Assembly: GCA_002633005.1 (NCBI GenBank)
Contig: NMRA01001104.1
Coordinates: 1-54,319, forward strand
Source of the DNA: Phoronis australis
Lineage: Eukaryota; Animalia; Phoronida
Length of the DNA: 54,319 nucleotides
Direction: 5' to 3'
Shown here piece by piece: positions 4,815-52,720 of the stretch. Each line of letters starts with the position of its first letter. Position 1 is the first letter of the stretch. Under the pieces are notes generated by a model. The model made no database searches. It was not told the origin of the DNA and was given only the letters and a program-made list of their open reading frames with translations. Position numbers and translations under genes: made by a program.

Positions 4815-4817
<3 letters not shown>

Positions 4818-4858
<41 letters not shown>
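4818..4858. repeat. (TG)n microsatellite
   Basis: Direct reading of the sequence. Confidence 0.95.
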
Positions 4859-4860
<2 letters not shown>

Positions 4861-11812: not shown

Positions 11813-11885
11813 TCTCCTGCCCGTTGTTTCATTATATCAGTCCTATCGTAGCTGTCTCTGTTGTTTCCAACTCCGGCTAGGACTT

Positions 11886-23105: not shown

Positions 23106-24411
23106 NTTCACATTTAATGAAAAAAATTAGAAGTTTCGAGTTTTTTCTCAATATTAAATTCTACAATAAAATGTGTGGAAAAAGGTGCATGTAAATATTT
23201 TTATTTACTCAATTACACTCATGCTGTTTCAAATTATACTTATAAAACACTACATTGACCAGGAATATGAACAAGATTGTATTGTATTGTAATCATGGTT
23301 CATTGTTGAAAATCAACAAGTAAAGGTAAACCAACAATGACTCTCCGTCCCTTAAATGTATGACTGCGAATTACGATTTTCTTCAACATTCTGTTTGAAC
23401 GCCCACATGATGACAATAAACTCCATATAAATAAACCTGTTACATTTCCAACATGCGCCTCCATCACCTCAGGAAAACGATAACACGTGGACATATCACG
23501 TGAACATACAATATAAGAGACACCTACGGGAACATCACCTGTTTGAGTAATTCCAAAATGTGTTTAATACGTGTTGCTGAATTGGGAAATCATTCAATAC
23601 ACGTATATTTAAAGGGGAGTGTTCCAGTATTTAAAGTCACAATTGTAAATATGGTTACGTGACGAACATTTGCAGACGTGTATATTTTCGCATCTGTACA
23701 TGTTAATGATGCGCATTTCCGCTCGTTTTAGTTGAGAATCTCATAAGCAGATATTGACGCAAGTCAGTTTAGACAAAACATGATCACTATGCTCATCCAA
23801 TACAACTCAAACTGTGTTCAAGGTTATATTGCATCACCACCCAAAGTAGCCACCACTGTGAGATACAGTTGACCTATGCATTATGGGTACCCACTCAACT
23901 GTCGCCATATGTTAAGAGGTTTCCAAGGCAACCCCGCCCACATTGGAAGTTTAGCAGTTAGAAACGCAAAGTGAAGTTACGATTTTTCAATATTTTCGTG
24001 ATTTTTTCAAGTAGCAAAACTCACATGGTGTTCTGAAAGTATGAAAGTAAGGGGAGATGTACCTTTCAATTAAGCTAAATCTTTTCTTTTCTCTGATTGT
24101 AATGACTGTACTATATTGGCAAAAATCCACTCACTCGACAAACTTACTTTGACGCAGTTACCAAATATAACGAAGATCATGAAGATATAAGAAGCAATAA
24201 AAGAATGTGCTACAGCTCTGTAAATAATGTAATTGCGAGTAAAATGCAATAATAGAAAAATGAAAACCGTTCCCAGTCAGAGCCCCGTAACTGCAGATTA
24301 AATAGTGACACATTGGGGAGCTCAAAATTCAGTGAAAGCTTTGACCAATAGCAGATGTAGCTTCTGGGTCATGCTTATTGGTGATTTTGTGACCCATAAA
24401 ATGCCCGGGTT

Positions 24412-24762
24412 TCAAAAAGGTCTTCCGTTGGGGAAAATTTCCATGCATAGTTGTTTATCACTGTCGCTTATGGAGTCGTTCATGGAGTCGTAGATGGCCT
24501 CGATGCAAATCCCTTGTTCAATCGAACGAGGGGCAATTTCAGCAATCGAAACCGTATGAAAGGGTGGAACAGCCGGAAAAATCAACGCGTGCACCACGGC
24601 CACACTGGCTTCCTGTCGCTCGTCAGGTACAAAGCCTGGACAACCGGAACTACCAGTACCAAAATTTGAACTGGTTTTGTAAAGGGCTCTGCAACTATCA
24701 TCTAACTTCGGGTAGACGTCGAAGCCAAATCTATCTTGTGACCACTGCTTTAGCTCGTCATG
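24412..24762 (-). CDS. Terminal exon of FAM111-like protease (catalytic Ser)
   Basis: Acceptor TATTTCAG, phase 0. HDELKQWSQDRFGFDVYPKLDDSCRALYKTSSNFGTGSSGCPGFVPDERQEASVAVVHAL...RSIEQGICIEAIYDSM...EIFPNGRPF*. GSSGCP and SIEQG resemble FAM111 GASGSP and IIEFG. Confidence 0.88.
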   Translation of the reverse strand, partial: HDELKQWSQDRFGFDVYPKLDDSCRALYKTSSNFGTGSSGCPGFVPDERQEASVAVVHALIFPAVPPFHTVSIAEIAPRSIEQGICIEAIYDSMNDSISDSDKQLCMEIFPNGRPF

Positions 24763-27700
24763 CTGAAATAGACAAGTTTATAAGCGTGGATGGTGCTTAA
24801 GATAAAGTTTTATAAAAAGAATACAATTGACTGGCTTGTGTGACAAGATTATTGTAGTTATATTTGAAGGAGAATCATGTCCGCTAACAGGTGTACCCTA
24901 TCGCAAGCCGTTCGGCGGAAAACGTCGCCAGTAATGACGTACGAAATTACCACCGAGACTTCCCTCGTGTTTTACGACCGTGATCGTTATACATGTATTG
25001 AAAGAGTAATTTGAGGGTGAGGTCTAAAGAAGTTGTGCTTTCGTAGTTTTACACTCGCATTTTTTGCTCCATATCTTACGCTCGTATTAGTAAGCTCGTA
25101 ATTTTACCAAGACCGGGTCGTTATATTTAGGTCATGCCAGTCAACGCCACTTAAAACTCAGTTGATACTGTTTTGTGGCGCAAATGGTTTGTTATTCAAA
25201 TGTATTGAATAAAGAATTCGCGACTTACCACCATCATTTAGAAATTCGACATCATTACACCCCCCCCCGAAAACCGTGTTGAACCTAATATGCTTTTTGT
25301 AATGCCATACACTGTGCGACTGTGTGCGTCATCTGCACGAACTGCTAGGAGTAAGAGAAAGAACATTCGCCTAAAATTTGATAGTGAGAAAACACGGTAA
25401 CACAAAAAGAAACATTATCAGACTGCCTGCTAGACGTACATTTTGCCACCTCGGTGTGTACTAAAACGGACCAAATTCAAATGCCTGTGATGATTGGGTC
25501 AGCGAGTCAAAAATATCAGCCAATCTTGGATATTTGTCAATCTTTTGCACTTACATACTTTGCAACCGAGATTTTACGAGCGTAAAATTACGGGTGTACA
25601 AAGACTGCTTCAGACCTCATGCGACCTTCAAGTCAATTTGTCATTGGATTACTTTACCAGCCAAGTTTCGGTCGTAAAACCGAGCGTAATTACTAATCAA
25701 CAACATCCGTTGTGAAACACGAGTGAAGTCTCTGTCGCAATTACTAGCCTAGTTAGGGGCGACACTTTCCAACGAGAGGCCAACCATAGTACCCACCAAT
25801 CCACTGGCAACGTGCCACAATACTTCTGGCTGGTTTACAAAAAACTGTTCCTTATATGGTCAAGCAAGTGTTAGGATCGCGCTATCACCAAACTGTTCCA
25901 TGTATAGTCATGTATATGAGTGGGTTAAGCTTGTACCACACTGTTCCTTATATGGTCATATGTGAATAAAGCATTCATCAAATTGTTCCAAATATGGTCA
26001 TGTAGATGTGTGGTTTAAGCTTGTACCGAACTGTTCGCTATATGGTCAGACTGTTCCATTTGTTTGGATTATGTTTGCATCAAACTGATTTGCAGGGAAG
26101 AGATTTCTTTATGTATGCCACAACCTTTGCAAATGAACTCGGGCATAGTAGTTCTTAGCACATTTTGGCAATAGTTTCGTGTATTTGCAGCGGTGCCTTC
26201 TTCGCTGGTTTAGTTTGTGATTCATTACATCCATAGAACAATACACTTAAACTTAACACAGTTTTCATCTTGTGCCTCACAGTTTATTTGTGCATGTGAC
26301 AGGGTCGAATAGTATTGCAAACAATATCTGATCATTCAATACCACAGGCCTACCTTTGCGCGAAAGTCGCTCGTCTCCATTTGCACAACACCACACCTGA
26401 TATCAGCAACTTTAAAATCGCCGTCAGGGTGACCAGCAAAGTGAAGTTGTGTTTCTTTGTTTATCTTCTTAAACCTTGTAAGAGGTGGCGGTAGAGAGTC
26501 CAACTTCTTGCAGCCTTCTATTGAGCGGGGAAGAGGTGCCTGTAAGTCCAACTTCAAAACAGCCACGTCCAGATCATCGTTAGAATACACTAGTGAGTCG
26601 ACACAGCAGCCGGCAACTGACTCGAGTCCAAGCCATTTTGATTTGTCGTAATAAAAGAGCACTGCACTCTTTTTGACTGAAACGAACAAGTTGACACGTG
26701 AAATTCCGAACAGTGTAACCTATTACACTGTTCATGTGTATGGAAATAAACAGTGTAACTGGTTACACTGTTTATTTCCATATACATGTAACATACACTG
26801 ACTTAGGTAAACCAGCAAACTCTATATTTGAATTCAGCGTTTAGAAATATATCTAACATCGTATATCAACACCGTTTCCAAAGGGATTTCAAGCATGAGT
26901 GTAGTCAAAAGTAGCCTTTTAATAACCCGTGCAAGTTGTACGCTAACAAAAGGTGAAAGTGCTTTTTGGAAACATGGATGCATATTATGTTGCTGAGGGC
27001 TATCTTTGAAAGAAGTGCTGTCACTAAAGAGGCCACCCTCATTTTAAATACCACAGTAAATAAATAAACAGAAAAACTACATGATAGCGACCTCCACATT
27101 TTTTTAGGCATAACAAAGACACAAAACTTGAAAAAGAACGACAAATTGAAAATTTAATCAATGAAAAGAGACATCTGAGGTCAAGTAATAAAACTAACGA
27201 AGGCCCATGGGTCTCTGGTCAGGTTGTTTGGATCTCGTGAGAGCAATGCCCCCGTCTATGTATAACCTCACACTGAAGTCGTGATCGGTTCACTAGTGCG
27301 ATTGCTACTCAAACTCAAATCAACAAAATTCCGATATAAACCATACTCTGTTATGAGAACGGACTTTATTAACACGCCTATTTGAGAGTGTGAAACGCCC
27401 ATGTATTTTAATCTTTATTTACATATTGGTTGAGATAAGACGTTCTCCATCACGGCTTTACATCTGATGATAACGCGCCTAAACAAGTAATATCCATGAA
27501 CTTGATTTGAACCAATCATGAAGTGTCATTTCTTCTAGACAAGCCTTGTCTGAGATGAGACTGACGGAAAATGGCCTCGACCAAAACTTTGTGTAAGAAC
27601 AAACAGTTAAGTAAGAGATAATTTTACCTTTTGTTCTGAAAATAACATACTGTAACATAACAGTGTGCACTTGTTCGATCTCAAGAACAGTAAATCGTAC

Positions 27701-30700
27701 TGAATTTATGTTTCTAACTATTCATTAGGTGATTTGAAGAACGTGGACAGTTTCAGGAAACAGTGACAGTGTGTTTGGGGAAAGCATTTGACCTTTCTTT
27801 GGATAATCAGAAAATTGTAGCCTTTGTTTTTACCGTCGTCAGTTTATAGCATTTTCAAACGCGAAATATTGAACTGGAAGTAATTTTGGTCTGCTAGAAA
27901 TACTCGCAGAAATAAACTCATAGAACCTTGTCAGCCATAACACTAATTCCAAGGGAAGATTGCACTGAAAATTGGCGTTCAAGGGCAATTGGCTTGCGAC
28001 ATTCTCGCCCCAAAAACTGACGGAAAAGGAGTGGGTCTAGGCTGACGGCAGTTTCTGTGCTAAATATATGTAGGAAATGCTTGCCACGCATGGCGTTCAG
28101 TAGTACTGTAGTTCCTGGAAGTTGATGTGATTAAATGAAAATAAAAAAATTGGTCTCTGCTCTTATCTACCGGGAGACGGGAGCCCCGTCATTTTCAGAG
28201 CATAACCTAAGACTTGTTTAGTTGGGAATGTTGGCACGATTACGGGTACCTCTCAGACAAGCAAATTTGCCAGTTTTTAGGAACATTAAGCTGAGTGGCA
28301 GAGCATTACATTTTTTGTCTCGTTTCTTGCACAGGTGGATTCTTGAACTAGTGATTTTAGGTATAAAAATGAGGCAAAAATTACACTATTTGGCCATTTT
28401 TGGCGTCTGATTTTTAAGGTGGACTCGACAAGACTAAGAAATGACATGGTTGACTGTTTATAGAAAAACCATTAAGTATACTTTTTCTGAGTTTTGCCTT
28501 TTTTCAGGTGTCACGATACTGTAAACAAGACCCAGCTTTATTAACCCAGACCAGTGATGACGTCAAAATCAGTTACTTGGTCTGTACAGCTGTGGTCTTT
28601 GCTGGTCCAGTTAACTCCAGCATTGCATATGCCGAGCGTAGCGCTCTGCACGTATTTAAAATGAACCAGAGAAAGGTTTCGCAGAGCGTTACTCAGCCAC
28701 TAGTACACCAATCAGGGAATAGAATGCACTCACGATCATCGCCGAGTTTTTCAGCAACGTGCCAATTGGTCATAACGTAGTCAGGGCCAACGCGGAAACC
28801 TGAACCTGTGCCGGTTTGTCCAACAATAAGAGCTACTGATGAAAAGGCTGTTGACAAAGATGTGTGGAAATGTGCCGACATCGTCTCTTTGTTCAAATCA
28901 AATGCAGGACCGAAGCTACACCGGGGCGGCAACTTTCTGGAACTTGTGACAGGAAAGTAATCTAGAAGAAAACAAATGTCAAACCATTTTCCAATATCAT
29001 CAATGATCTCTTCAGTAAACATCAACGTGATGTTTATGTCTCTGTTATATTGTGTCACAGGTGTTAGTACCTGTCAAACACGAAACAATCTACAAAGGTT
29101 GACCAGTTCGCTCACACAAGGAAACTGATATACCAAATGAGGTGGCGTGCTTTCATTTCTGAAGAAAAATCGAGGAAGTGACGAGCGGATGACATATTTG
29201 AAAATGAAGTGAAAAAGATTTGACATCAACAGAAATTCAACATATATTTGAACAAATTCCGTTTTAGTGGCAGAGAACCACTTTGAATCATGCAATTTAT
29301 TCTGTTCTTTATGTTGCACTATGCCACTTTAACAATGGACTCGTTCGATATCTGGACCAACCACGACTTATTAGAAACTGTTGTCTTCTAGATTTGTAAA
29401 CCAAATGGGGTTCTTTTGCCAAATCGTGGCACTCCTTGTGTAATGAGCACGATTAGGACTGTATTAGATGCAAAATAAAACTAAAGATGGTGGTAATTAA
29501 ACTAAGATTACAATTAGAAATGACGGTAAAATTGAGCGTTGTTTATCTGACATGTTTTAACTAAGTCACTTGGTTAGTGCGCACAGTATCAGAAATAAAA
29601 TAATGCATTAGACAAAAACTGCTTCTTAATCTATTCGGCATGACTTCGATGGGTTAACTTATCAAACCTAAACTACATGTAAAAATTGGTAGTCATCGAG
29701 TCTGTTCACACCATGTGTTATTTCACAATCGTTGATTTCAGCGAGGTGCCATCTGCAGGTACATGTTTACGAACTACAACACCATCTATTTTAACATCAT
29801 ATACATATACGGACGAATGTTCAGACCAAGAACACTGTGCCCAATTATCAGTCGTAGAACAGCTTGGGTCAATTGGTTCCATACACACTGAACTGAATTT
29901 ATGGTATCAACATCTCATTTAGTGCATTGGGTGAATAAAAATCGATAATTTATTATTTAGAAGCTTGATGGGACTAATCATTCCAATTCGTAGTTCGTTA
30001 ACAGAGAAGTTTACAATATATGATTGTGCGTAAATAGTATAAAGCCAATATTTATGACTTATATCCATACATGTATACCTGATAGCCTGATGTCAACACC
30101 CAGAATTCCCAGCTCACTCTCGTCTCGCTGTGCTCTTATGTTTATATCTACCCAACCCTCGGGTACTGTTGCCCCGGAAGACTGCAAGTAGTGCATAACA
30201 TGTCTTCCGAACTCTAAGGACGGATCAGTTGTGGGTGCGACTCTCGCTTCAGCTCCTTCAGCAGAACTCGCACGTTGGTTTTCCTGCCTTTTTTTCTTGT
30301 GATTCTATAACCGATATTAAAAAAGTGCAATACAATGCTACCATCGGCTCGGTATGTACACGCGATTAGGAAGAAGCAACGCATAAAATTTAAAAAGCAT
30401 AAAATTCGTAAAAGTTTATCCACTTAATGAATATCGGAAATAATAAGAGTATTGACAAACTAGTTAATTTGGTTGATGAAAGATTATTTAGTTGTGAACA
30501 ACATTCACGACAACCAAAATTTATCGTCAAAATGACAAACTAGAGTGTACCTCGAGGACCTCCTTTATTTTTTTAATAGTTTCGATGTTGTTAAAGAACA
30601 CGTTGGCCTCTTTTCCACAAACATCGTAAGCTGTTTCTCCTCTCTGAAAATTGACAAATGATTATAAGTATTGAATCAAAGGACACATATACAGTATCAG

Positions 30701-33700
30701 CAGGTACTCATAATGGATAATTCTGAGGATATTGTTGAACTTAAGATTCCGATTTGTTTCCATTTGCATAAGTTCAATATCATCATTTAAAGCAAGAGTC
30801 TCAGTAGTTATGTGTGTTCCTTGTATAGCAGTTATTGTCTTTGTGGTACAAGAATGCTACTCAATGTCAAGTGTTTGTTTTAATATTAATTTGGGACACT
30901 GTCTTTTTATACCTGCGTCTGGTAGTATAAACCACATGAGCTGCTGATTCGTGTACTGAGCTTAAAGAAAGACACGGTGCTCTTAACTCTTGCTGTAAGC
31001 TTTGTCATCATAGGGGCTCAACACGTTTTTGTTTCTTGTTCAAACATTGACATCTACCCAAAACTAAACTCATAACTTTACATGTAGTTTTTTTATAAAT
31101 TTCGAGGCATCCACCTGAGAAAAATTTTGAATCTAATACAAAACTTGCCGCAATGCCGCACCTTCTGGTTAAAACGTCACCTATTAGCCAGAATAAAAAA
31201 GAACGTCACAAGCCAAGCTGAAGTCCGTGAGAGACGGACGCAACCTCCCTAACTCAAGTAATTTTTATTCCATCTTTAGATTCAAAATTTTATCCGAGTC
31301 CTAAACATCCGAGGAGAACGAAAAGGTAATACTCCACTTAAGTTACTGACTTCTTTTAGCTGTGGGTTCTTCAAATTTTTAAGCAATCACATAGTAACCT
31401 GGTTACTACATCAAGTGAATAGTTTAAATTTGTTAAAAATCCCGTGTCAATAGTCGCTTAGAAGTTTACAAAAAAGTAGAAAAGGACTTTGCCAGCAACC
31501 GTGGACGCTGTTCCATTGTACCGGGACATATAATTACATATACGTGTACAACTGTAATGAGTTATGATGCCTAAAAACACTGGTTACATAAACATTGACA
31601 AACATCCAATGCAGACATTGACAGCATACATGTACCACACAATTTGACTGACACTCTTATCTTACCGTATTAACAACCGTCGCATCGACACCCGTTTTCA
31701 GAAGCAGTTCAACAACTTCTAGATGGCCACGCGAAGACGCGCTGTGCAGCGACGTGTTGCCTCCCTACAAGAAGTATTGAAATTTGTTGACAAACAAAAA
31801 ACAAGTTTGCACGATAATCAATTGCTGAATAAACAGCAAATGAAAATAGTTTAAATTTGTTAAAAATCCCGTGTCAATAGTCGCTTAGAAGTTTACAAAA
31901 AAAGCAGAAAAGGACTTTGCCAGCAACCGTGGACGCTGTTCCATTGCACCGGGACATATAATTACATATACATGTACAACTGTAATGAGTTATGATGCCT
32001 AAAAACACTGGTTACCTAACCATTGATAAACATCCAATGCAGACATTGACAGCACACATGTACATGTACCACACAATTTGACTGACACTCTTATCTTACC
32101 GTATTAACAACCGTCGCATCGACACCCGTTTTCAGAAGCAGTTCAACAACTTCTAGATGACCACGCGAACACGCGCTGTGCAGCGACGTGTTGCCTCCCT
32201 ACAAGTATTGAAATTTGTTGACAAACCAAAACAAGTTTACACGATATTCAATTGCTGAATAAACATCAAGTGCAAATGAAAATTAAATTGTCAAAAAATA
32301 AACCGAGTTCAAAATGAAACTGCTAAGACTTATTTCAGTCACATAACAAGGACATTTTGTTGCCGAACAATTTTGGGCATTTCAGAATAGAGCGATATGA
32401 CACTCTCGGTAAAGACGGACGAGAACGGAAATAGTGCATACAATACATGTAGAATTTATTTTCAAGATTCAGGGTGGTATGCCCTAATTGTTCACGCATC
32501 ACGTGGTCGTTAGTGTTTCTCCATAGCATCTGACACTCCAGCGTGTGTTGTTACTTATTTGTACACTTGATTTGTAAATTTTGCTCCTAGATTTCACTCA
32601 AGTTGTTTCAAATATGTAACCAACAGCTTTGTATGTGGCGCATGCTCTTTAGGTTGTCTAGGGCCCAAGGAAATGTCCGATTTGGCTACCGTCGTAAAAT
32701 AATATCTCAAAATAGCTGATCCGTCTCAGAAACTATTTTCATGCACTGTTCGATAACACACTGTACTGAATTGATTTTAAAAGATAACATTTTTTGCATG
32801 ACGGGCTGTCAAAAAAGATTTTCACGATTTTCATCAAATTTATACCAAAAAGTGAACAGATGTTTAGAAACAGGACCAAATTTTGAGATCTCATCTTGAA
32901 GATTTATACGAAATAAAATCTGATATCATTGTTTTGTTATCAACGTACCTTTCCTTTCAGATAAATCACGTGATGTAAATAGTGGGAGACTAGTAAAGAG
33001 GTAAAATCAATTTTTGTAGTTTACTTACAGAAAGTATAAACATTAACTCTGTTAAAATCCACACTTTTAGACACTTTTCATAATACGCAGACTACTCAAT
33101 TAGGGCCCACAAAACCATAACACACGTGTATAATGGTAAGCGAAACTGCAGCAAAGATATCATGTTGCTGGGTGGATAGTGTCAAGACACAATCACCTTT
33201 ACAACAGGATTATGTTTTACAATCACGTGGCTCGCGTTTATGTCAATGACAGGCGGTAATGCAGACCGTGCCATCGGTGTCAACACTCAGCAAATGAAGC
33301 ATCTTCATGCAAAGCGTTTTTAGATTCTTGGCGAAAGCCTATATCGCAGAATTATCTGTTGGCGATCTGATGACATTGAACCGAACATCGGCTGGCCGTC
33401 GCATGAGTGATGAACTCTTGATGTGTGGCCGATATGTTCACTAGACTCTTTAGATTGTCGTAGTGTAAGAAACGTCGGACAAGCAATGGTTTGTATCTCA
33501 AAATGTCTTAATCACATATCAGGTGATGCTGCCACTGACATTTATTCGACCACTAGAGCATACACTGTATGAGATTTGTTTACTTGGCACATTGTAATGC
33601 ACTTTATTTCTAAAGAAGAATAGTAAACGAAAATTTGTGAATAAACAAAGAAAGTTGTTGCCCAGTGCAGAGCATTGTGTGTTTTACGCATTTAGGCACT

Positions 33701-36700
33701 TGCGCCTATATCCAAAATAACTGCCATAAGGAAATTGTCCTACTCAAATGTTTCGCACAAACGCATGCATTATGCTTCTCTTATAGGCGCAGGTGGATAT
33801 CCTTTCATGTTTTGTAGGCTTTAGAATATTTCATTTTACGTATTGGCCTCAATACGCGCATATAGGGTAAAAATACATGAAACACACAGACACACTGGCT
33901 TACATGCCAAATATTCAGAATTTACAGAAGGAAATCACAAAAAATATTACTGACACCCCACAGCTATTGTCTCAGCTCTACAGCATGCTTCACTAATTTT
34001 TCTAGGTAGAAGTGTCCTAAAACATCAAAATGCTAAAATACTTAGCACTTTTTGGAATCTACGGAACTTGTTGCTTGGGGGTCTAGAAGCTCAATGTTCT
34101 GAAGATGTTTTTTAATAATTGGCAGATTTTATTCGTACATCGGAGAATTGCCGATTTTCGTGGAAGCATAAACATGCAAATCATAGAGCAACGAACCCTT
34201 CACACCGTCAATCAAATATTAAAACATACACACATTTCCAGTTCTGTACATGTTTGTTTATACAATTTTGTCCATCTTTCTGTAAGGAGCTCCTTGGCAA
34301 TTTATCCAGGTATGCGCTCAAGAATGACTTAAAATTTGCACGGAAAAGATAATGGAAATTGATGTTTTAACAGCCGAAAGTGGGGGCCTAAAATTCACAA
34401 TTTATAAGAAAAAAGATTGTGCAAGTGGCGGAGGAAGGTGGTTATACAAAGACCCGTGGCACATTTTTTAAATACATTTTACAAACAACCCATGCCAATT
34501 GACGTCGTATGGAGCTCGCAAGTTTACATCATTACAGAGAACATAAATCAAACCACGAAATTAACATACATAGTCGTGCAGTGGGATTAAAAATAAGACA
34601 CGCTGAGAGTTTTATTGCAAATTCAAGTAAACTGCAGCCCTCTGGTGAACGTTTTGTTTTTCATTTACTAAAATGCTCACACCGAAGAAATTAAAGTAGG
34701 TTGCACCATGGCCATCGATAAAATTATATGCTACCCGATCAATCTCACAGAAAAGGAAAGTGATTGAATTATACTGTAATATAGCATCTTTAATAATGAT
34801 GGAAGTGACTAAATACGAAAAGGGTTGCCATTCTATTAGTTCTTACATTTGAGACTATAAAGTGGAATGCGAATAAATATTTTAATAATAAACCATCCCC
34901 AAAACGCTATTACCGAAAGAGTTTTAAAACTTCCACATTCTCCACAGAATACACTCATTGCAAACATCATGGAAAATGTTACGTTAAAGAACTCAGTCTC
35001 ACAACTTGAAACCCCCAAACCGTTCTTCTCACTACGTTGTTGAAATTTGAACAGTTTTTTTTTTAATATTATGATTCGATTTAGTCTCAGTCGTAACATG
35101 AAATCCAGCTTAAGAAATGCGAGTCTCTTATCCTTCCTGAAGGTATGAATATTTTTGTCCATTCATTCAAGTTTTTGCGTAATTGCATTTCTATGAAAGC
35201 GCACGTCTAGCGGAAGGTTTTGACCAGAACGTTTATTCCAAAAAGTATTTGATGCGCTGCACCGAGAACTGTGTCCTGGTACCCGAAATACGATGGTACT
35301 ATGAGGGGTGAACCAAACTGTTTGATGGCTTTCAAACTGAAATGGTTACGTATTTTTTATTTCGTGATCAAGATCCACCATACCAAACATCGCGATTTAG
35401 TCTGGTCACTTTTGTCTTGACCCTCGTAGCATCAACAAAAGGTTTTGAGACAAAAATCCACATCTTGTAGTACTTGGTAATTATCAAATGGTTTTAATTA
35501 ATTAACAGAAGATGAGATTCGACACCTTCTTTGAAATGGTTTACAGGAATGGACATTTCAACGGATATTCATTCATTTTACTCAAAAGGAAACTATTTTG
35601 ATTAATCCTGATCGTAGCACACATTTTGTGTTTGGGCATTATGTATTCCACTTGCAACTGCAACACAAGCGACTTTTTTCGTGGAATATCCTCTCATAGG
35701 CCAGATGAGTGCACAGTGCTGTGCTCTGTTACTATCCTATCGAAAAGTTTGCACCGAACGGACTTGCAACAATGTGACTTAGAAAACTGATTGTTCAAAT
35801 AGTCCCTTTTTAAAGCAATCTTGACTAACAAACTTAAGTGGGGTTCCTAAATGTGCACTGACGTGATTAAAAACCTGCATAAACTTTATGGGATGAGAAA
35901 ATTAAAATCTGTGTCTGTGTTCGGCGCCTTATGGTGTGGTTGGTTTTTTAGTTAGTATGCCAATAGTATGATCACACCAGCGACTCTGGTTTCACTGCGT
36001 GTTCTGGGAAAGTACTTGCAGTGAAGAAGTGACTCTTTGTATAACTCCACGTAAAGAGGTTGTTCATTTTTAAGAGATATTTATTATGAATGAACAATTC
36101 CTCGAACTCAATATTCATTTAAAACACGTTTATTGCAACATTTACTAAGCTCGGAGTGCAGCACTCTTGAGATACCTTGTTTACGGCATTCACCTCACAA
36201 CTGCCTTCATTGACAAGCAGCTCTACGACCGCTGCCTTTCCATTGTGCGACGCCAGGTGTAATGCTGTATCTCCATTCTAAAGTGAACAAAATGAGAGAA
36301 TGCCGGTCATCCTTAAATATAGCGAAGTGGGTGTGTCAAGAGGACGTCACGTTTTATACCTTTCTGTTCCAGAACTTCACCATCAGTTGCATACTTACTG
36401 TATGAAGCGGGTGACTCAACACAGCACGACTACACTTGACATTTAAACTCAGATATAAATGAACGAGATTTCTTAAATGCTGACCTGTTTTAGTCACACG
36501 ATTGATAATATGGTTTTAAATATCACAATTTGATTCTATGTAGTACAACAGAGCCACATTCATTTAGTGAGTGCAATGGAAATACAAGTAAAGAACCACT
36601 GCTCTTTGTACAACTCAGGGTGAAGAGAAAACTGTTCTAATTACTTAATGTCGCGAGCACGTCACGTCAGGTGCAGCGGTGTGTGGCCCTCCTATGGAAA

Positions 36701-42700: not shown

Positions 42701-45700
42701 ATGTACAGTATTCCCTACCTTTGAAAGTTTTCGGAACAAGCGCCCACAGCTCTACTAATCGCCATCTTAACTTTTGACAAACTTCAATAAAGCGCCAACA
42801 GCTCTGGCAAGCCCCCACCCGTAATTTCACTCACTGAAATTTATTTTCATAACTGCAAGATGTGTTTAAAATGCGGTAACCCAATCGCGATGTTTCGAGT
42901 CGCACGGTATAATTATGTGTGCAATGATCGAAGGAGACATTGTATTGTATCCTGTTAGCGTCCGCGTGGTTTGAATTTGTCACTTACACAGTCTACAGTG
43001 GGTCACACTCTCATTTTACTTACTGGTAACAAGAAATTCGTTTTCTAAAAGAGCAACTCTTTCATCAACGTTTAAAAGCAAAATCCCGGATTCGTTTTGT
43101 GCCTCCGAAGGTATGGCCTTGCCAAAGCGACATGCATGCTGGGGTCACGTGTTGTTTTGAGGCTAATCTATTTTCAGCATGGTTACATGTACATGTATAC
43201 ATGTACAGTGTATGGCACTTACACAGTGCTGTGGTGGGGCGTAGGCGCACGTCGGCGCAGCCAACCACCTTTAAGCATTTGAACATAGCGCCTACATGTA
43301 TATCCACCGTAAGACACGTTCAGCGCTCAAGGTGATACGATGGGCTTTGGGCGCCTACATGTACTTACCTTTAATTTTACCACTACAGCACTGCACGTGT
43401 ACAGTGTATCCGTGCTAAGGGAGCAAACTCGAATTACCCAATAATTGAAACCCGCACGGAATGGTATTATTTGAAGCGTTTTATTGTATGAAAAGCTTAT
43501 AATCAAAAACGTAAACAGCATTCCGTTCTTAATTGTTTGTGATGACCTACCGTTTGTTTGATAACTGTTTATGTCATCTTAATTTCTGCCCCCAAATCGA
43601 TAGCGGTATATGCACAATACGTCATTCAGCTAGGAAAACGTTTTGCGGATTTTTTTCGACAGCATGTTTTTTAGTCAGTCGAGTCGTACAATTTGAAGAA
43701 CAAACAAATGGAGCAAGATTGCACTCAGAGTAAAAGCATAATGTATATATTTGCTTCTGTAACGATTTTGATTACAGTCACATGGCGGATCAATAATAAA
43801 AGAGTCGTGCGTATCTTTTCAAATATTACTTTCTTCTAGTTTACGATGCATATTTAGTAACTCGAAACGGTTAGAGAGCACTGGCTCAACTTTCACTTAG
43901 GCACCAAAGCTTGCAACAAATTTTCTGAACTCGCGAAAGGATGTGCTGTAGTACGGTAGATATAGAAAACCCTTACGGGAAGGTCAGGCGGCAGGGAATT
44001 ATTTCATTTGCATAGCAACATGCGCATCTAGGGCATTTCAAAAGCGGTCGAGGAAAACCGATACAACAGACATTAAGAACTCAGTTATGCAATCTGAAAA
44101 TTGAGAATACTTAACGCCGAAGGTAAGAGCATTTTATCTAAACATTTTCTCGATGGCCTAAAAATCAATTTGGCGCATAAAAATTGCGGGTAATTTTTGC
44201 GACCTGGAATTCGTGACAGCGAGCTGGGATTTTGACAGTGTTACAAAATGTGGAGGTAAGGCGAGTTATTATTATTTTTTCTTGTGCCATGACCACTATG
44301 TTAAGTACTGTCTAAGGATATAAACTATTGGTTAGATAAACGCATTTCGTAACAATACCGAACAAGTGATACAACAAAAATAAACGCAAACCAAAAACAA
44401 CGCTTTTTGCTCAGACCACATACATGTAGCAAATAATCACCTGCATGTGTATTTAATCAAGCAAAGTTAATCACAAAATGTGACAAAACAACTAAAGCAA
44501 TAAAAATAATTGCTGCAAGTATACCCGTAAGTTTATTGACATATCTTATGTGTTTAACATTAATCTACATAAAATGCAATAATACTATTTTGTGTTTTCA
44601 AAACTCTGGAATACTACCTTTAAGTTTATGTTTAAAAAAGGAAAGTCTAGCTAAGCAAAAATAACATTATACACTAATACTTTCTAAGATTCCGAAGAAC
44701 CAAACAGAGCTACTTTACAGTGTAGTTGATAAAGAAATACTCTCGTAGAAGATATGCTTTAGCCTGCAATAATCTAACCCACACCGGTTTTACAACACGG
44801 AAACTACCCAAAAATATGTTCATCAGTTTCTGTGAAATCAGTACAAATACACTGTAGTACAAAGAGCATAATCGATTACGCCAATTTGAGTAAACACTTG
44901 TAATGAACTTGTGAATCAGTCTACATTGAAAACATTTCATTTGAGTATCTTGAATAACGCAATTATTAGTTTTTTCTAATTTATATTTTCATCAGTCACA
45001 CTAAGCGAAGATTCCGCTTAGTTTCGCAAGAAAGTGGAGTGTATAAAATCATTAATAACACTTTTCTGTGACTTCGTGATAATCTGATTAATACATTAAA
45101 GATGACATTGGAAGTACAAGTAGAATCTGTTGATAAGCAAACGGATCTTTTATTTTTAATACTGTACTTGGAAATACTTTGCTACTGACGATAAGTTTTC
45201 TCGAAGAATAAATCAAACCCACTAAAATGTAGAAACGTTTTGACAACCACGTTTTGTAAAAATAGGTTCGCTCGAGCCCCCCGAGCCTCCCCTGATGCGC
45301 GCATTTGGTGACAAAGTTAACATATTTCGTTAAATTTTGAATCTGTAAGTTTTAACATTTGCCACTTGGGGAATTGTTTGTGAAAATTATATCCCGGAAA
45401 ACATACGTTTCACCATCAACCACGTTTGAATTGACAACTGTGCAAATATTACGCCTGGAAAAAGTGAGTACCCCGTAACAAAACCTAGCGCAAATTTGGT
45501 GGAAATGTTGAACAGAGTGTATAAAACCATAGGCACCTGTGAATGTTAACGTCAAATGACTGAAAGGTACGAAAATTTTCGGCGTTCCTTTATTGTAACG
45601 CAAAATCTGATAAGTTGGCGTGAAGACAGAATTGTGAGCAAATCTGAAAAACCTGCAACAATTTGATAATAAAAGTCTTCCAGGCAACTGCGCTTACGTG

Positions 45701-48700
45701 ATCGATGTTACTTAGAACAGCTCATCCGGAATCTGTGAACCAGGATGACGTCGTTTGTCCTTAACTGCTGGGATTTTCTACAAATCTTCTGTCAAAAACC
45801 TAGCCTGTATTTATTAATACTACGTCAGATAAATATTTATCAGCAGCTTCAGTCGAAATCATCATGACGAAATACGCAAGGTCAAATCGGAATTGTACAC
45901 CTGAAATCTAATCGTTTCATCGTGATTAATGAATGTCCCTTTAAATATTTCAAACAAGTGTTTCACTGTAGCTAACACGTGTGCACGTGAGAACTGCCGT
46001 GCAAAGCGCTGCTTTTTAAAGCGAAGCACGAGTCGTCATTTCAACTCACGGAACGATATAAAAATTAGGGTTTGGATTCTGACTAGACAGAGGTCTTGCA
46101 CAGAAGGTTAATTTAGGTAGAAATGGTTTCAAGGGGCTTATATAAATATGGGTTTTTTGGGGCTTGTTACCCGCTTACATATTAATTTGAAGGTGTTCCC
46201 CGTGCCTTTTTTCCCAATGCTCTCTGTGCAAAACGTTTTACAACCGATATTCACCCTCAGGAACTTTATTCTTCAGCCAATAACCTATTTTGATATTACA
46301 ATCCAACTGTATTTCGTGTTCACCTGGTATTGATGTCCCCTCTGTCCTCTTTATTGTGTTTGTTCCTTACACAAATTTGTTAGAGGTTATTACATGGTGT
46401 TCAGTGGAAATTTGCTATAGCTTCATTTATTTATGTGATTTTTCTTATCAATTTATAGTTGTCTGTCGAACAAGTACTGGTCTGGGATAGGATACTAATA
46501 ACCGCGACCCAGAATCCTGACTGTAGACAAGGGCGTGTGTCAGGTGAGAAAGCACCGACATCGGCAACCGTCGTTCTAAAATTACGTGAAGTTAGCAAAA
46601 AGTTGGACCGGTATTTACTATGGAGGACGTAGCAGATGGTTTAAAAACTGTGAAATATGAAAAACTTCCCTGGTTAGATGGATTTCCAATAGATGTTTTT
46701 TTTTCTGAAAATCATTGCTAACTATGTTACAGAGAACTGCTAACTACACCTGTAGTTGAAACAAACGACCCACTCAATTACAGGGTCAAGATACTGTATA
46801 AACGCGCTAATTTCTGAGAAGAAAAACACTCGTTATAAGCTAAAGAATTGGAAACTCTTCTTTTTGCTTAATGCATGTTTTTCAGGTGTTGTTGACGATC
46901 GAGTTAAAATGCATTTACTCCCTGATATTCAAAAGGTCTATTTGGCGGGACGTTAAATCGGAGAATATACATGCCTTCCTTGGACTACTGCTTCCAAGCT
47001 TTTTCATGCGCGCACCCAGCCTTTAATATGGAGGATGTGGACCTTTTACATACCAAAAAGCCGAAGGACTAAAAAAACGGGGTACCACGTCCAGAGATGT
47101 GAATTGTACGTTTGTGCCTTTTTAGTGGACTTTTTGTCTCATTTTCTCGGACTTTTTGTTTCTCTGAGGCGGACCTTTTAGTCCACTTCGCCAAATGGGG
47201 GGCTCACTCCCGTTGGGTGCGCGCATGAATTTTATGACAAAAATAATTCTTTTTCACTAACTTTGCAAAATATACTAGAAGTTGGTTTGAAGCACTATTA
47301 GAGAATTCAAATCTTGTTATAATGCAATGTTATATATTTTCTGAACTCTTTTCAACCAACCGCGGTTGTAGACTCTGTCTCCTTATTTTGGTTATATGCA
47401 GAGAGCAGTAGGCATCAGAGCCATCCACATACAACACTGTTGTAGAATATGTTATTCTTGGAATAGAGTTGCTGCAAGAATTGGGGTGCTGTCTAGACGA
47501 TGCTTAAACTGGTGCAACTTGCTGCACTTGTGACATCTTTCTCCAGATACTGTTCAGGAAAAAATCATGATGCAAATGAAACGAATTTGAAAATACGGAG
47601 TGCAAACTGTTGCAATATACTGATGATGTTGCTCTTTTCGAAAGCTAGGAAAGTTCACTCAAGTCATCACTCTCACTAGTCGACCAGTCTGCAAATTTCT
47701 CAGACTTGAACCTCAATTTTGATAAAACTGTCTATGTTCGGTGAAGCTGTATACGGACCTCTAACACTTTGTGTCAAATGAAAACCTGACGCAAGAAGTA
47801 AGCATTTGTTTCTTTTCATATTGGTCTAAAATGCTGCCAGTTGTACACCGTAGTGTTATAGATTTAAGCTTTGGTATTACCAAATTGGTGCGTCTTTTTT
47901 CACTGCATCCATTCTTCGCCTGATTCTGCTTAGAAAGGATTGTCTATGACACGGTGGATTGAAGATGACAATTATCGCATTTTTAAAAATACTTTAAAAC
48001 GTAAGGAACACTTAAATCCACAGTGATCAAGACTTGTGGGCTGAATTAATGTCACATCTCATAATGTACATGTAAGCTAATACTTTTCTTTTTACAAAAT
48101 GTTGAGCCTTATTCCGCCTCAGAGAAACCGTGAACAAATTGTGGAAAGCACGTCAATTCGGTACGTAGAGCACGATGTGCTGCGATTGAAAGTATTATAA
48201 TCACTTTTGATTGCAATTAAGAAGCCAGCCAGTAACGCTAGGACCTCGCAAAAAAGCAAGACTTCGTGAAATTACGCGAGATATGGCCGTGTATTTTAAA
48301 TGAGAACACGTGACTTTTGCTAGATTTTAGCTAGGTCCTAGCGTTACTGAACGCACGCCTGTTTTGAATTAGCAGCAAACATGGTCGCGCCGCACGTCAC
48401 AGTTATTTGCGTGACTTTCCCGTTACCCCCTTTCGTTTGTCATTCTTTGCAGTGTTTCACAGCTGCCGTGTCCCACTGTGTACATGTAAGTATCCAGCTT
48501 ATGCTATGTGGTTGCATTACTGTGTCATTTTACATGTATATCCACTTGCATGAGAATGAAACAAGTACCCCGTATGTTAGGTGTACCTTTTGATTGACCT
48601 ATCGCAAGTTCCGCCCCTTGCGAAATGTCGACAAACAAACAATAAATTTTACCTGGCGACGTGTTGATTGTTGGGTAAAATGGCATCTTGGAAACGAAGG

Positions 48701-51700
48701 TGTTTCAAGAATGCTACATTCTGATTGGTCAGTAGCCGTCACTCAAAACCCTGGGGATAAGTCAATTGCGTCGCTAGGTCAGTTACTTCATCTATGTTCC
48801 GTTGAATGCAGAATTTTATTCCCAACATATGAACGAAGCGGACTAAAGACTGTCAATAACAAAAAAGTGTCGTGTGTTCCAACATGCAGAATCGATTAAA
48901 CATTCATGTAAAAAGTGATTGCTCCGACTATAAAACAAATAAATAATTACACCAATATAAAGATATGCCTCTACTGATCATTGATTTATTCAACAAAATT
49001 CTACTGACAGGAGCCTACCCTTCTATTTGAAACTGCGATTATGGTACCCAATTAGAAAAGAATTCAGAATCACTGCAGTCTTTCTTTAAAAGTGAATAAA
49101 ATGTACAAGAACCTCATTTTCAATAACTTAAAATAAGTAACAAATTTCACTTTGGTTTTATGAGTGAAAGAGTACTACATCTCACCTGTACAAAGTTGTT
49201 CATGAGATACGACAACAATATGAAAAATGGGTTTAATGTTGGATAATTAATCCGCATTTGACAAGGTTTCACAAGATCTCTTCTTGTACAAAGCTGTCTC
49301 TTATCGAATATCGCACTCTCTGCATACCTGACATGTAAATGTATCTATCTAATCGGGTAGTAGACCACTTGTAGGTGAAGTATTTTCTAAACCAGGGTTT
49401 TGTTTATGAAGGGGTACGGAAAACTGGTCTCCCTTTTATTCTCTACATCAATTACAGACTTCCAAAAGCACCCATGACATAGTCAGTGATAGAGCCAAAT
49501 TTTATCCAAATCTCGAAACCATCCCAAGAACCAACAACAACTGAATCTAGGTTAGGCTCAGGACACGTAAGAGGCACACACATGTAAACTTCAAGATTGA
49601 GATAAAGTGTTCGTCTGGGGCACATCCCTCGCAAGAGCAGCAAAACTTCTGCGTTCTTTTTGAATCGCGGCGTAAGTTTGAAGTGTATACGGACATAACG
49701 GTGAGGCTCGTGGTCCGTTACAAATTCAGGCTGTCGGATCTTTCAATTGATAAATTGGAGACGTTAGAACTGTAGGTAAGGGCATTTTTCGCATGTAGTT
49801 CATGGGCTGGGCGCTTACTTTAGCAAAGTCTGAAAACGCGTTGGGGCACTTGTTGAGCCATGGGCGCTAATTAGGGCGAATAGCGGCAGAATTACATACA
49901 GCAGCGTAGTTTAATGCACACAAATTACACGTCGTGCAAACCAGTCGGCCATCCCGTTTACCATCAACAATCCCAGTAGCCTTTGCGCACCCTAATTTCC
50001 GGACATGCGCAATCGTTAAATCGATTCGGTTGCAACTCCGCTATTGTACACTGGCCTACATTATTCGTATTTGAGTCTGGAAGGTGAAATTGTTACCCCA
50101 AAAACACTGGTAAAGACATCTAACCATAATAGAAGATGATGAAATGTCATTTAAACCACACTGACCAGTCCGTGCTCAAAAACAATTCAAATCAACTTAC
50201 TGAAAATTGTACAGTGTATCGCATCTTTAATGCAAGTTTTAAATCGTCTGATACATGTAAGTACATACGATTGAAACGTTTTGACTACGGTGATATACTG
50301 CACCAAGTACATATAGATTGTGCGGGAACTTTTGCCTGAGCTGGACAGACTATATTATCAAGCTTGCAATAATTATTACTGGTGTCATGGAAGGGTCGAA
50401 TATAGTTAAAATCTTAAGTCGTTCAAAATGCAACTGTAATGAAAGTTGCATTTAGGTAATAACACCTCAAGTTCTCAACAAAGTAAATGACATAAGCAAA
50501 ACAAAATTCGAATACCACTCGATCTGGGTAGAGTTCAATAACGCTAGGAACTCGCCAGGCCATTCGCGAGATTACGGCGTGTATTTTAAAAGAGAACACG
50601 TGAGTTTGGATAGTTTTTCGAAGCCCGAGACAGCTACCGATCTCTACCGGGGTCTCTTTCAGCATGCCTTCCTTAGTTCCGCCATCTTACAGTCGAGTCA
50701 CTCGTAAATCCACAATAACCAAAGCATAGATATATGTCACACCCTCCCAATATACACACGGAATTTAGAAATTATATATCATTATTAAATTCATTTTATA
50801 CAATACTTTTTCTTAAAGAATAAAGTCTTTCTTCCTATAGTCCTATACCGCCGCACAATAACAAAGGAAATATGTCAACAGATTCAGGTCAAGATTATTG
50901 TTGAACTCTAAAAAAGTCGGACCGACTTTTCAAAAACTGTCTCTCCGGTGCAACTGTGGTCTGCCCAAATCGGCCAGTCTCTAATTGTTTGCACTATCAT
51001 CGATCGTTTTCGGGATCCTTCTGGCGGACCCTGGAGACAGTCGACGATATTGCAGGAAAAATTAATAGCATTCCATGGAAAATTTATTTTTTGATCACTG
51101 ATTCTCATGACTATCCCAATAGCGTCTACAAAGTGCTTCTTAATAAAGTTGCCAGCATTTCCATACTAAACTGTCTTTATACGATAACTTGATTATATTT
51201 TTTCTCACCGACATACTACCGTAAATCAAGAAAGACATCTGCCATATTTACAACTTTTGCAGCTAAATGTGAATATTTTGTTATTACTGTTGTAATGTTA
51301 CTACGATGTTCACCTGTTGCTTTGGTTAACAGTATAGAGTGTTGATATAGAAATATTCAACAGAAAACCAGGAAAGCAATGCCATCCTGATGAAACGTGC
51401 AACAATGGTCGTTTCTTTAAAAAGGTGCACTTCAATCCAATGATGATCATACGAGCGTTTATGTGTGAATACTCACCCACGGATTAAGTTCTTGGTCCAC
51501 ATCCCACCCACGTTTTATATATTTCACAAGTTTAGAACAATTGCCATTGCTTGCAGCTGCTTCAACCTGAAAATAATAACAAAAAAAGATTTTAAATCAC
51601 ATAGTCTACATTCACTACCAGCATGGAATCATCCTTACAAGCAGAGAGCTTTCAAAGATGATATGAACAGTCCGGGAGGGCTTGGGTTGTTCATGGATCT

Positions 51701-52720
51701 TGACACTGAAGACTGTATGAAAAACTTTTCAAACTTTGACCCATGCTCATATCAAAGCTTCATAATAAACCTGCATTTATACAAACTTTAGAAACGAGAA
51801 ACACATGTATCTGTCTCCTTCTCACTCATTGTGTCCACGTTGACCTTCGTGTCCATTTCACCTACTGAAACCAGTTTACCCCCATTTTCATTTCCACCTA
51901 TTATGTTCAATTTCAGCTGCCCATAGCGTGCTGCCTACTGCAGTTGGTATCCTGCCCTATCAAACATTGTGTTGGGGTAAGTATTTTTCCCTTCGGTACC
52001 ATTTAGGGGGCATCGTCTCGAGTTGTTATTTGCTCATTCACGTAGCCTCTCGGAGTGTGTTTGTCGTTGAGGTATCGGCTCGGGTATATATTTATTAAGA
52101 ATTTTGTGGCGTCATCTTGTTGTTGTTGTTATTGTTGTTGTTGTTGTTGTCATAACAAATCCTAGAAATACTAACAGAATGACAGCATTTAAAGCGACTG
52201 GTTGGGTTTAACAAATGAGGCAACGTGGACCACCACCTTTATTATAACCTTGTATCAGCAGTACTGCAGCGATGAATTTTGTGGGACTGAAAACCCGCGA
52301 AACTCTGAATCAACGTGAGCTTAGAATTTTGGACTGTAAGAAACGCAGAAAACGTGGAACTCACATCCTTTATTTCATCAACTATTGGATTTTAACTTGA
52401 CGTGTCCTTTGACTTAGATCCTTCCTGCGACACAACACCATCACTCGACTTTACTCAATGTCCCTAACCTCACTCTACCTGTTTTGCCACCCCCCTTCCT
52501 CCTTGCCTCCTTGCTCGTAACAATAAGTTCTCCGTGTTATGCCAGTTCCCGTTTTTCTAATTACCTGTCGTCGGTACTTCTTTTTTACTGTTTGTTCTTG
52601 ATTCTTGCCCGTTTTTTGCTTAAGGTTATTTCCCACCCTCGAAATATGGTCCAAATCTTGCTCACGTTGGAATACCATATCTAACATACGGTACAGTACA
52701 GTATGTGTCATTGGATTCAT
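24412..52720 (-). CDS. Multi-exon gene: ankyrin-repeat array fused to a FAM111-like trypsin-fold serine protease (span of the gene model; exons listed separately)
   Basis: Manually spliced GT-AG exons with compatible phases, except one unresolved junction (30079 to 29070). The 5' exons are less certain and an N gap lies at 40714-41638. Confidence 0.7.
25844..26060. repeat. Degenerate ~45-48-bp intronic tandem repeat
   Basis: Core ACTGTTCC..ATATGGTCA recurs about 5-6 times. Confidence 0.7.
26354..26676 (-). CDS. Protease exon (catalytic Asp)
   Basis: Acceptor TTCGTTTCAG, donor AAG|GTAGGC, 323 bp, phase 1 to 0. Encodes SNDDLDVAVLKL and HFAGHPDGDFKVADIRC. Confidence 0.88.
28734..29070 (-). CDS. 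Protease exon (catalytic His)
   Basis: Acceptor TTTGACAG, donor C|GTGAGT, 337 bp, phase 0 to 1. Encodes SSVALIVGQTGTGSGFRVGPDYVMTNWHVAEKL. The 5' boundary is less certain than the 3' one. Confidence 0.82.
29811..29887 (-). CDS. Possible 77-bp linker exon
   Basis: AG/GT bounded and phase 1 to 0, which would reconcile the neighbouring exons (CMEPIDPSCSTTDNWAQCSWSEHSS). Weak donor GTATAT and no recognisable homology. Confidence 0.25.
30079..30181 (-). CDS. Linker exon
   Basis: Acceptor TACTTGCAG, donor CAG|GTATAC, 103 bp, phase 0 to 1. SSGATVPEGWVDINIRAQRDESELGILGVDIRLS. Confidence 0.55.
30551..30643 (-). CDS. Ankyrin C-terminal capping exon
   Basis: Acceptor TTTTCAG, donor GAG|GTACAC, 93 bp, phase 0-0. 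RGETAYDVCGKEANVFFNNIETIKKIKEVLE. Confidence 0.78.
31666..31764 (-). CDS. Ankyrin repeat exon
   Basis: 99 bp, AG/GTAAG, phase 0-0. GGNTSLHSASSRGHLEVVELLLKTGVDATVVNT. Confidence 0.9.
32100..32198 (-). CDS. Ankyrin repeat exon
   Basis: 99 bp, AG/GTAAG, phase 0-0. GGNTSLHSACSRGHLEVVELLLKTGVDATVVNT. Confidence 0.9.
36176..36277 (-). CDS. Ankyrin repeat exon
   Basis: 102 bp, AG/GT, phase 0-0. NGDTALHLASHNGKAAVVELLVNEGSCEVNAVNK. Confidence 0.88.
36668..36691 (-). pseudogene. Remnant of a deleted ankyrin exon
   Basis: Acceptor CCATAG, then EGHTPLHL, fused to intron sequence with a stop two codons later. Counterpart of the intact exon 38548-38646. Confidence 0.75.
36837..36935 (-). CDS. Ankyrin repeat exon A
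   Basis: 99 bp, ATAG/GTAATT, phase 0-0. WGRTPLHYAALCGHTQTVKCLVEHSATVDVRDQ. Confidence 0.9.
37493..37591 (-). CDS. Ankyrin repeat exon B
   Basis: 99 bp, ATAG/GTAATT, phase 0-0. GGGTPLHYAAGCGRTQIVKCLVEHNATVDVRDE. Confidence 0.9.
37923..38024 (-). CDS. Ankyrin repeat exon
   Basis: 102 bp, AG/GT, phase 0-0. NGDTALHLASQSGKAAVVELLVNEGSCEVTAVNK. Confidence 0.88.
38548..38646 (-). CDS. Ankyrin repeat exon C
   Basis: 99 bp, ATAG/GTAATT, phase 0-0. WGRTPLHLAAREGHTAVVQCLIEHRANVNVCDE. Confidence 0.92.
38792..38890 (-). CDS. Ankyrin repeat exon D
   Basis: 99 bp, ATAG/GTAATT, phase 0-0. WGQTPLHCAAWNGHTQTVKCLVEHNATVDVRTQ. Confidence 0.92.
39448..39546 (-). CDS. Ankyrin repeat exon E
   Basis: 99 bp, ATAG/GTAATT, phase 0-0. 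DGLTPLHFAARHGHTQTVKCLVEHNATMDVRTQ. Confidence 0.92.
40114..40212 (-). CDS. Ankyrin repeat exon
   Basis: 99 bp, TTTCTGCAG/GTAATA, phase 0-0. GRDTALHCAAVEGHTEVARVLCEAGANINKQDW. Confidence 0.92.
47003..47229. mobile_element. MITE, 227 bp
   Basis: Perfect 16-bp terminal inverted repeats TTCATGCGCGCACCCA (47003-47018) and TGGGTGCGCGCATGAA (47214-47229); no coding capacity. Confidence 0.75.
47586..47742 (+). mobile_element. Decayed non-LTR (L1/Tx1-like) reverse transcriptase fragment
   Basis: FENTECKLLQYTDDVALFES*ESSLKSSLSLVDQSANFSDLNLNFDKTVYVR resembles the QYADD...F...SGLxxNxxKT region of L1-clade RT. Confidence 0.6.
51477..51566 (-). CDS. Probable N-terminal capping ankyrin exon
   Basis: Strong acceptor TTATTTTCAG and donor TGG|GTGAGT, 90 bp, phase 0-0. 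VEAAASNGNCSKLVKYIKRGWDVDQELNPW has the AAxxG...GxDVD pattern. Confidence 0.68.
52117..52150. repeat. (TTG)n microsatellite
   Basis: Direct reading of the sequence. Confidence 0.9.
52565..52720 (-). CDS. Candidate first coding exon (ATG at 52720 or 52678)
   Basis: Open frame MVFQREQDLDHISRVGNNLKQKTGKNQEQTVKKKYRRQ ends at a phase-0 donor CAG|GTAATT compatible with exon 51477-51566. Confidence 0.45.

Follow-up and report, generated by a model that had tools for sequence, protein, structure and literature searches.

Does the phoronid Phoronis australis possess a single gene that joins an array of ankyrin repeats to a FAM111-like serine protease, and what might such a protein do? The question is raised by contig NMRA01001104.1 of assembly GCA_002633005.1, analysed here over positions 1 to 54,319 (54,319 nucleotides, the window), in which ankyrin-type exons lie upstream of protease exons on the minus strand between 52720 and 24412. 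The original prediction, made from the letters alone, took them for one hidden gene encoding a candidate sensor-effector. We found that the ankyrin and protease exons are one expressed, spliced gene. The observation was confirmed in part, and the interpretation attached to it, a recognition or autoinhibitory module that gates a protease, was supported in part. All features described below are on the minus strand unless stated otherwise.

RNA evidence came from four runs of two studies, a contig set (X1) and three stranded runs (X2, X3, and X4), aligned to positions 23600-40700 and 37664-53500 of the window. The chain that leads from the ankyrin repeats over a linker exon into three protease exons is built of GT-AG joints, stays in frame, and was present in all four runs, with reads from a single strand. 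Among the 15 of 113 joints listed for 23600-40700, the chain is carried by 38548>38024 (28, 20, and 186 reads in X2, X3, and X4, respectively), 37923>31764 (9, 15, and 128), 31666>30643 (7, 10, and 91), 30551>30304 (8, 11, and 119), 30079>28961 (12, 5, and 94), 28734>26676 (27, 31, and 158), and 26354>24762 (24, 9, and 144), each of which was also found in the X1 contigs. An alternative joint, 32100>30643, was covered by 10, 3, and 33 reads in X2, X3, and X4. Four consecutive joints in X1 have an equal contig depth (106.8), which suggests that a single contig runs from repeat A4 into the linker. Further upstream, joints from the N-cap exon to A1, from A1 to A2, between two A3-type repeats, and from A3 to A4 are present, with letters that differ from those of the assembly. 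These joints speak against separate transcripts for the two groups of exons. The predicted joint sites 31666, 30643, 26676, and 24762 are those in use, but neither 30181 nor 29070 appears in the joint list; the exons used there span 30304-30079 and 28961-28734.

The spliced model that begins with the N-cap exon comprises 12 exons and 635 residues with no internal stop, and places the catalytic residues at His 403, Asp 448, and Ser 558. The main path runs through the N-cap, about six full ankyrin repeats, a C-cap, the linker, and the protease. The N-cap-like exon (51477-51566; 30 residues, phase 0, AG/GT ends) is joined to 40203-40208 in X1-X4. It is followed by A1 (40114-40212; Pfam Ank E 9.6e-10), with joints from 51476-51491 and to 39537; by the hypervariable-type repeats A2 (39448-39546; joint from A1 in X1) and A3 (38792-38890), the latter of which aligns with ankyrins and with designed ankyrin repeat proteins (DARPins); by A4 (38548-38646; E 2.4e-12); and by A5 (37923-38024; 34 residues, E 2.3e-8). 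A5 is joined to A10b (31666-31764; E 3.2e-8), and A10b to the C-cap-like exon (30551-30643; 31 residues), which has joints on both sides. The linker exon (30079-30304; 75 residues, with a basic charged start) had no match in Pfam, NCBIfam, or PADLOC. Each full ankyrin exon is 99 or 102 nt long with phase 0 and AG/GT ends and encodes one repeat, so that the splice joint falls in the hairpin loop. The Pfam Ank cut-off was passed by all four full repeat exons scanned, and neither cap-like exon gave a Pfam Ank match. Repeat A10a (32100-32198) is a local duplicate of A10b, 2 nt apart; within this duplication (31408-32297) both copies are joined to the C-cap, and no A10a-A10b joint is among those listed.

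At the upstream end, the N-cap exon is spliced to a further exon, as seen from a loose end at 51568 with 134 reads in X4. The 15-letter motif from this loose end was absent from the window within two mismatches, and the first exon, which lies upstream of 51566 and outside the RNA-covered stretch, may be located in the gap 53507-54163 or beyond. A first exon near 52720, as had been proposed, did not hold up: the mean depth there is 0-0.6 (bin 52448-52975), and no Pfam match was obtained. At the other end, the 3' untranslated region that follows protease exon 3 extends beyond 23600. No transmembrane-like segment was found in the 635-residue model (best 19-residue mean hydrophobicity, 1.47).

The array is accompanied by a second copy of the A2-A5 block at 35918-37662, which is 94-95% identical to 37664-39617 and abuts a single N at 37663. 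It contains exons at 37591-37493, 36935-36837, and 36277-36176, and a deletion of about 210 nt disrupts its A4 copy at 36691. The best-supported junction at this place, 37923>31764, bypasses the block. All ten full and two cap-like ankyrin exons of the original prediction are present in the assembly, but the main transcript includes only about six of the full repeats, and three lie in the skipped block copy. It is likely that this block is the other haplotype placed in tandem, and it may instead be a recent true duplication; since its A4 exon is broken, repeat number varies in either case. More generally, the duplicated blocks 20332-23105 and 35918-39617 are 94-97% alike and meet at single-N gaps (21816, 23106, and 37663), and these duplications probably reflect a heterozygous animal whose two haplotypes were placed one after the other in the assembly.

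How the repeats differ from one another bears on what the array might do. Among the four sister exons (A2, A3, and their copies), 18 nucleotide columns vary, and only one of these is purely silent. Ten of these 18 columns fall in the six codons that are randomised in DARPins (P 6e-5 when columns are counted, 0.01 when codons are). The nonsynonymous proportion (pN) exceeds the synonymous one (pS) in all six sister-exon pairs and reaches 0.43 at the six DARPin codons. In the alignments from the Protein Data Bank (PDB), DARPin repeats likewise vary at positions 3, 8, 11, and 12. DARPins bind their targets through randomised positions of the concave face (PMC8229355). When the three same-position exon pairs were compared across the block copy, 19 codons differed by an amino-acid change and one by a silent change. 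The A2 and A3 same-position pairs are 14% and 10% divergent, respectively, against 3.3% in the flanking intron, and same-position exon divergence exceeds the intron divergence of the whole block (Fisher P 4e-5). The ratio of 19 to 1, together with the concentration of the changes on the predicted binding face (hairpin and first-helix positions), points to diversifying selection, and this amino-acid-biased divergence speaks for the proposal that the array is a recognition module. In the linker and protease exons, the RNA differs from the assembly at six places listed (from 40 entries of 1061), of which four are silent and two conservative; this is another kind of data than the exon-pair comparison. 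The N-cap/A1 hairpin joint takes several forms in the RNA, which vary among samples and are in frame, one or two codons shorter than the assembly by hand count. The C-cap exon (30551-30643) is polymorphic as well: 29 of 163 X4 reads carry six extra letters at 30582 that preserve the frame, and a divergent loose end at 30615 has 94 reads.

The C-terminal domain retains the landmarks of a trypsin-fold protease. The five motifs named in the original prediction were verified on the minus strand: TNWHV (28770), DLDVAVLKL (26575), GHPDG (26434), GSSGCP (24654), and SIEQG (24525). The His, Asp, and Ser motifs of the triad are intact, ordered, and in frame. Protease exon 1 (28734-28961) contains Phe-Gly at 28914, a predicted lead-in helix, and the catalytic His codon at 28761; exon 2 (26354-26676) the catalytic Asp codon at 26569 and the GHPDG motif; and exon 3 (24412-24762) the catalytic Ser codon at 24648, His at 24591, Glu at 24519, and the stop at 24414-24412. 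Single-exon scans gave weak matches to Trypsin_2 (PF13365) for exon 1 (E 0.005, profile positions 1-20) and exon 2 (E 0.27, profile positions 45-103), which are collinear and both under the 27.6-bit cut-off. Exon 1 also matched a MarP-type His motif in a PDB search (E 0.007), and exon 3 had no family match in Pfam, NCBIfam, or PADLOC. Two further matches on exon 1 were discarded, Ntox25 (28735-28959, E 1.8e-4, 21.8 bits against a cut-off of 25) as chance and Gemini_AL1 of Pfam; both are below the cut-off and overlap the protease start. The triad spacing is 45 residues from His to Asp, 110 from Asp to Ser, and 155 from His to Ser, with 77 residues after Ser. The Phe-Gly lies 51 residues before His and is one of four such pairs in 375 residues. 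By tblastn, the window holds no second protease copy.

To which family does this protease belong? Judging from its motifs and spacing, it probably carries a FAM111-type domain. The DxAVLKL and GHPxGxxKxxD motifs resemble those of FAM111A. FAM111A and FAM111B (PDB 8S9K and 8S9L) likewise have a C-terminal Trypsin_2-type domain. The landmarks of FAM111A are His385, Asp439, and Ser541, with Phe536, Gly539, His556, and Glu573, and its self-cleavage site is Phe334/Gly335 (PMC9798293, PMC10920703). The His-Ser distance is 155 residues here and 156 in FAM111A; in both proteins Phe stands at Ser-5 and Gly at Ser-2, followed by His and Glu after Ser; and the Phe-Gly 51 residues before His has the same offset as the FAM111A self-cleavage site, which is suggestive only. 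The two proteins differ in the His-Asp (45 here, 54 in FAM111A) and Asp-Ser (110 and 102) distances, in the positions of the later His (+19 and +15) and Glu (+43 and +32), and at the position of Phe538, where Thr is found here. Here the protease is split across three exons, and an ankyrin array takes the place of the PCNA-interacting peptide (PIP) box and the two ubiquitin-like (UBL) domains at the N-terminus of FAM111A. Since the part of the protein seen contains no UBL domain and the single-exon searches did not group it with FAM111A, we stop short of assigning the protein to FAM111. FAM111-like proteins of coral and lancelet (A0A7D9LSX1 and A0A6P4ZC58) also lack UBL domains, and their status as orthologues needs further annotation (PMC9798293).

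Other protease families fit less well. Membership of the HtrA/Deg family (S1C) was rejected: the His-Ser distance is 155 here but 105 in E. coli DegP, no PDZ match was obtained, and the 77 residues after Ser leave no room for a PDZ domain. DegP shares the Trypsin_2 fold and a similar His motif (a 21-residue local match, E 0.13), but the whole-domain phmmer match is negligible (E 0.12). The secreted trypsins (S1A) were set aside as well: there was no PF00089 match in the single-exon scans, and the domain has TNWHV and GSSGCP in place of the S1A signatures TAAHC and GDSGG. The spacing and the missing PDZ and PF00089 matches agree with the original prediction that the protease would group with neither of these two families. 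Rice NAL1 resembles the protein in being an intracellular trypsin-fold protease with long triad spacing (57/94) (PMC12012508), and differs from it in the GHPxG motif, which stands here in the second barrel. Neither Nal1_C nor NAL1_N matched at E<=1 on the four linker and protease exons or on three surrounding open reading frames, the sensitivity of single-exon scans being low.

In architecture, two counterparts lie outside the protease families. RNase L combines an N-terminal ankyrin array and a C-terminal antiviral enzyme in one chain and is active on dimerisation. The present protein shares this arrangement of array and enzyme but has hypervariable repeats and a protease, in contrast to the fixed small ligand, conserved repeats, pseudokinase, and nuclease of RNase L. 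The ankyrin-repeat sensors of fungal NOD-like receptors (NLRs) have near-identical repeats with polymorphic number and selection on the concave face (PMC4986451). Likenesses to them are the near-identical repeats, the variation in number, the amino-acid changes on the hairpin and inner helix, and the fused enzymatic effector; the differences are that no NACHT or NB-ARC domain is present in the part seen here, that the repeats are N-terminal and encoded one per exon, that the effector is a serine protease, and that the gene is of animal type. The protein was not assigned to the NLRs or to the signal transduction ATPases with numerous domains (STAND), since only the 75-residue linker separates the repeats from the protease and the part seen contains no NACHT or NB-ARC domain. 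Our literature search, which did not extend to subscription journals or to UniProt/InterPro architectures, found no description of an ankyrin array combined with a FAM111-like protease. The word 'ankyrin' occurs nowhere in the review of FAM111 evolution (PMC9798293), and 'FAM111' nowhere in PMC8195603. With single-exon queries, metagenome contigs gave 0 matches among 595 and 1 among 155, the single match being a chance peptide on a bacterial contig, and none was obtained among 24 viral contigs, 379 prokaryote genomes, or phages.

What, then, might the fusion protein do? We tentatively favour, at somewhat less than an even chance, an intracellular immune sensor-effector in which the ankyrin face binds a foreign protein and thereby switches on the FAM111-like protease. 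Such a protein would be cytosolic or nuclear, and its protease would be of FAM111 type and prefer bulky hydrophobic residues at P1. Binding of the foreign protein to the concave ankyrin face would pair two protease domains or lift an inhibition; FAM111A requires dimerisation through the helix at the start of its protease domain (PMC10920703). The activated enzyme would cut proteins of the pathogen or the host, perhaps once it has cleaved itself at the Phe-Gly that precedes the domain, and exon duplication, loss, and point change would keep altering the recognition surface as part of an arms race. FAM111A is antiviral, and the viral proteins SPI-1 (poxvirus) and large T (SV40) inhibit it (PMC11847056, PMC13640560), which makes an immune role the natural guess. 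A variable front end with a steadier enzyme is also the pattern of the fungal NLR ankyrin sensors (PMC4986451). The more specific proposal of a single-chain 'natural DARPin' receptor, free of any nucleoside triphosphatase (NTPase), whose reshuffled and positively selected array directly gates a FAM111-type antiviral protease, is possible but doubtful.

The array could alternatively be a substrate-targeting arm that steers a constitutively competent protease to variable proteins such as those of viruses. This is rather unlikely, even though a targeting arm predicts the same diversifying signal and the isolated protease domain of FAM111A is active without its N-terminal part (PMC10920703), because an always-on intracellular protease would be toxic, as unrestrained FAM111A kills cells (PMC10551639); nothing in the current evidence separates targeting from gating. 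The same variable face might instead read a polymorphic partner of the host, as in allorecognition or gamete recognition. The high allelic diversity between samples fits such a self/non-self protein, and the fungal repeat sensors that evolve in the same way act in allorecognition (PMC4986451), but the protein looks intracellular, its nearest likely enzyme is antiviral, and no linked polymorphic partner gene was seen in the window, so that we regard this as distinctly improbable. It is also improbable that the protein is a housekeeping intracellular protease, for example nuclear or linked to replication as mammalian FAM111A is, in which surface positions vary freely and gene conversion homogenises the rest. 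An ankyrin framework is always more conserved than its surface, the linker opens with a basic stretch, and the exon sample is small; relaxed constraint, however, gives neither exon divergence above that of introns nor 19 amino-acid-changing codons to one silent codon, and the PIP box and UBL domains were gained only in vertebrates or mammals (PMC9798293).

A further explanation concerns the transcript itself, namely that the complete fusion protein is made in minor amounts or has no function, with most transcripts stopping in the A1 intron and the protease decaying or separately translated. The intron at 39547-40113 is likely retained: sense reads in X2-X4 cover it at near-exon depth (92-263 at the listed places in X4), a 577-nt contig of X1 includes it, and an in-frame stop follows five codons past A1. 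Retention would yield a short product of the cap plus one repeat, or decay, and would possibly act as a brake on a toxic protease; an alternative 3' end may lie inside the intron, where AATAAA is absent. The protease is also too divergent for relatives to have turned up in the single-exon searches. In X1, however, splicing from A1 to A2 is represented at the same depth as retention (66.1 against 59.8), the reading frame stays open across 12 exons, and the listed protease-exon differences are silent or conservative, which makes this explanation very improbable.

Several observations weigh against the proposed sensor-effector and its FAM111-type protease. The reads are short, and no single full-length molecule was spanned. 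About half of the transcripts may retain the A1 intron and stop early, and the upstream first exon could encode a signal peptide or another domain. In four of the six sister-exon pairs, those at different positions, exon divergence (8-13%) is no higher than that of the flank (8-10%), and the excess over introns is therefore limited to same-position pairs. Gene conversion could have shaped the repeat variation, and the selection signal comes from seven exons of one assembly, with no codon model or recombination test, in which alleles are indistinguishable from close paralogues. As for the protease, the predicted match to FAM111A and FAM111B agrees with the spacing of the landmarks, but FAM111A was not matched in three single-exon PDB searches at E<=10, and the landmark span is not unique to FAM111, since the His-Ser distance of 151 in NAL1 fits nearly as well (PMC12012508). 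Single-exon folds computed without alignments reached predicted local distance difference test (pLDDT) scores of 42 for exon 3 and 34 for exon 2, too low for use. No true relative was found by word-index searches with single exons of 75-116 residues, a weak test (none of 94, 65, and 25 candidates scored). When exon 3 was run with HMMER against 1.84 billion proteins, two matches came back, both to unrelated proteins of repetitive sequence and dismissed as chance.

The rest of the window, which has a GC content of 38% and contains scaffold gaps and spliceosomal introns, includes one long terminal repeat (LTR) retrotransposon at 8113-12556 on the plus strand. Its 399-nt terminal repeats (8113-8510 and 12160-12556) are 96% alike, and its pieces (RVT_1, RNase H-like, Integrase_H2C2, and rve) are arranged as in Ty3/Gypsy-type elements and are broken up by stops and changes of frame. 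At 1270-1449 lies a fragment of argininosuccinate synthase (Pfam E 2.6e-10), an exon of a neighbouring gene or a pseudogene piece; a motif search of 1-8100 found no further exon. A 65-residue frame at 6223-6417 resembles the C-terminal end of a reverse transcriptase of a long interspersed nuclear element (LINE) and had no Pfam match. Intronic interspersed repeats at 42944-43471, 46640-47695, 48224-48751, and 49280-50335 are heavily covered by RNA reads of both strands, show numerous loose ends, and gave no Rfam match. Minisatellites occupy 54164-54319 (a 13-nt unit repeated 12 times, beside the gap) as well as 21649-21812, 22912-23103, 25842-26048, and 4247-4364 (28-nt, 48/90-nt, and 30-nt units).

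The review of the FAM111 family suggests that antiviral defence came first and leaves open the role of the invertebrate FAM111-like proteases without UBL domains (PMC9798293). A FAM111-like enzyme wired to a diversifying array makes the antiviral-first idea directly testable, as alleles can be swapped with the protease as the readout. If the proposed function is true, the gene would represent a simple class of sensor-protease receptor in the innate immunity of invertebrates, which lack antibodies, and its repeats would be a natural case of ankyrin diversification at the very positions that engineers randomise. On the 'natural DARPin' reading, FAM111 would originally have served to defend against pathogens by means of exchangeable sensors, and the ubiquitin-like domains would have become fixed on it later, in vertebrates.

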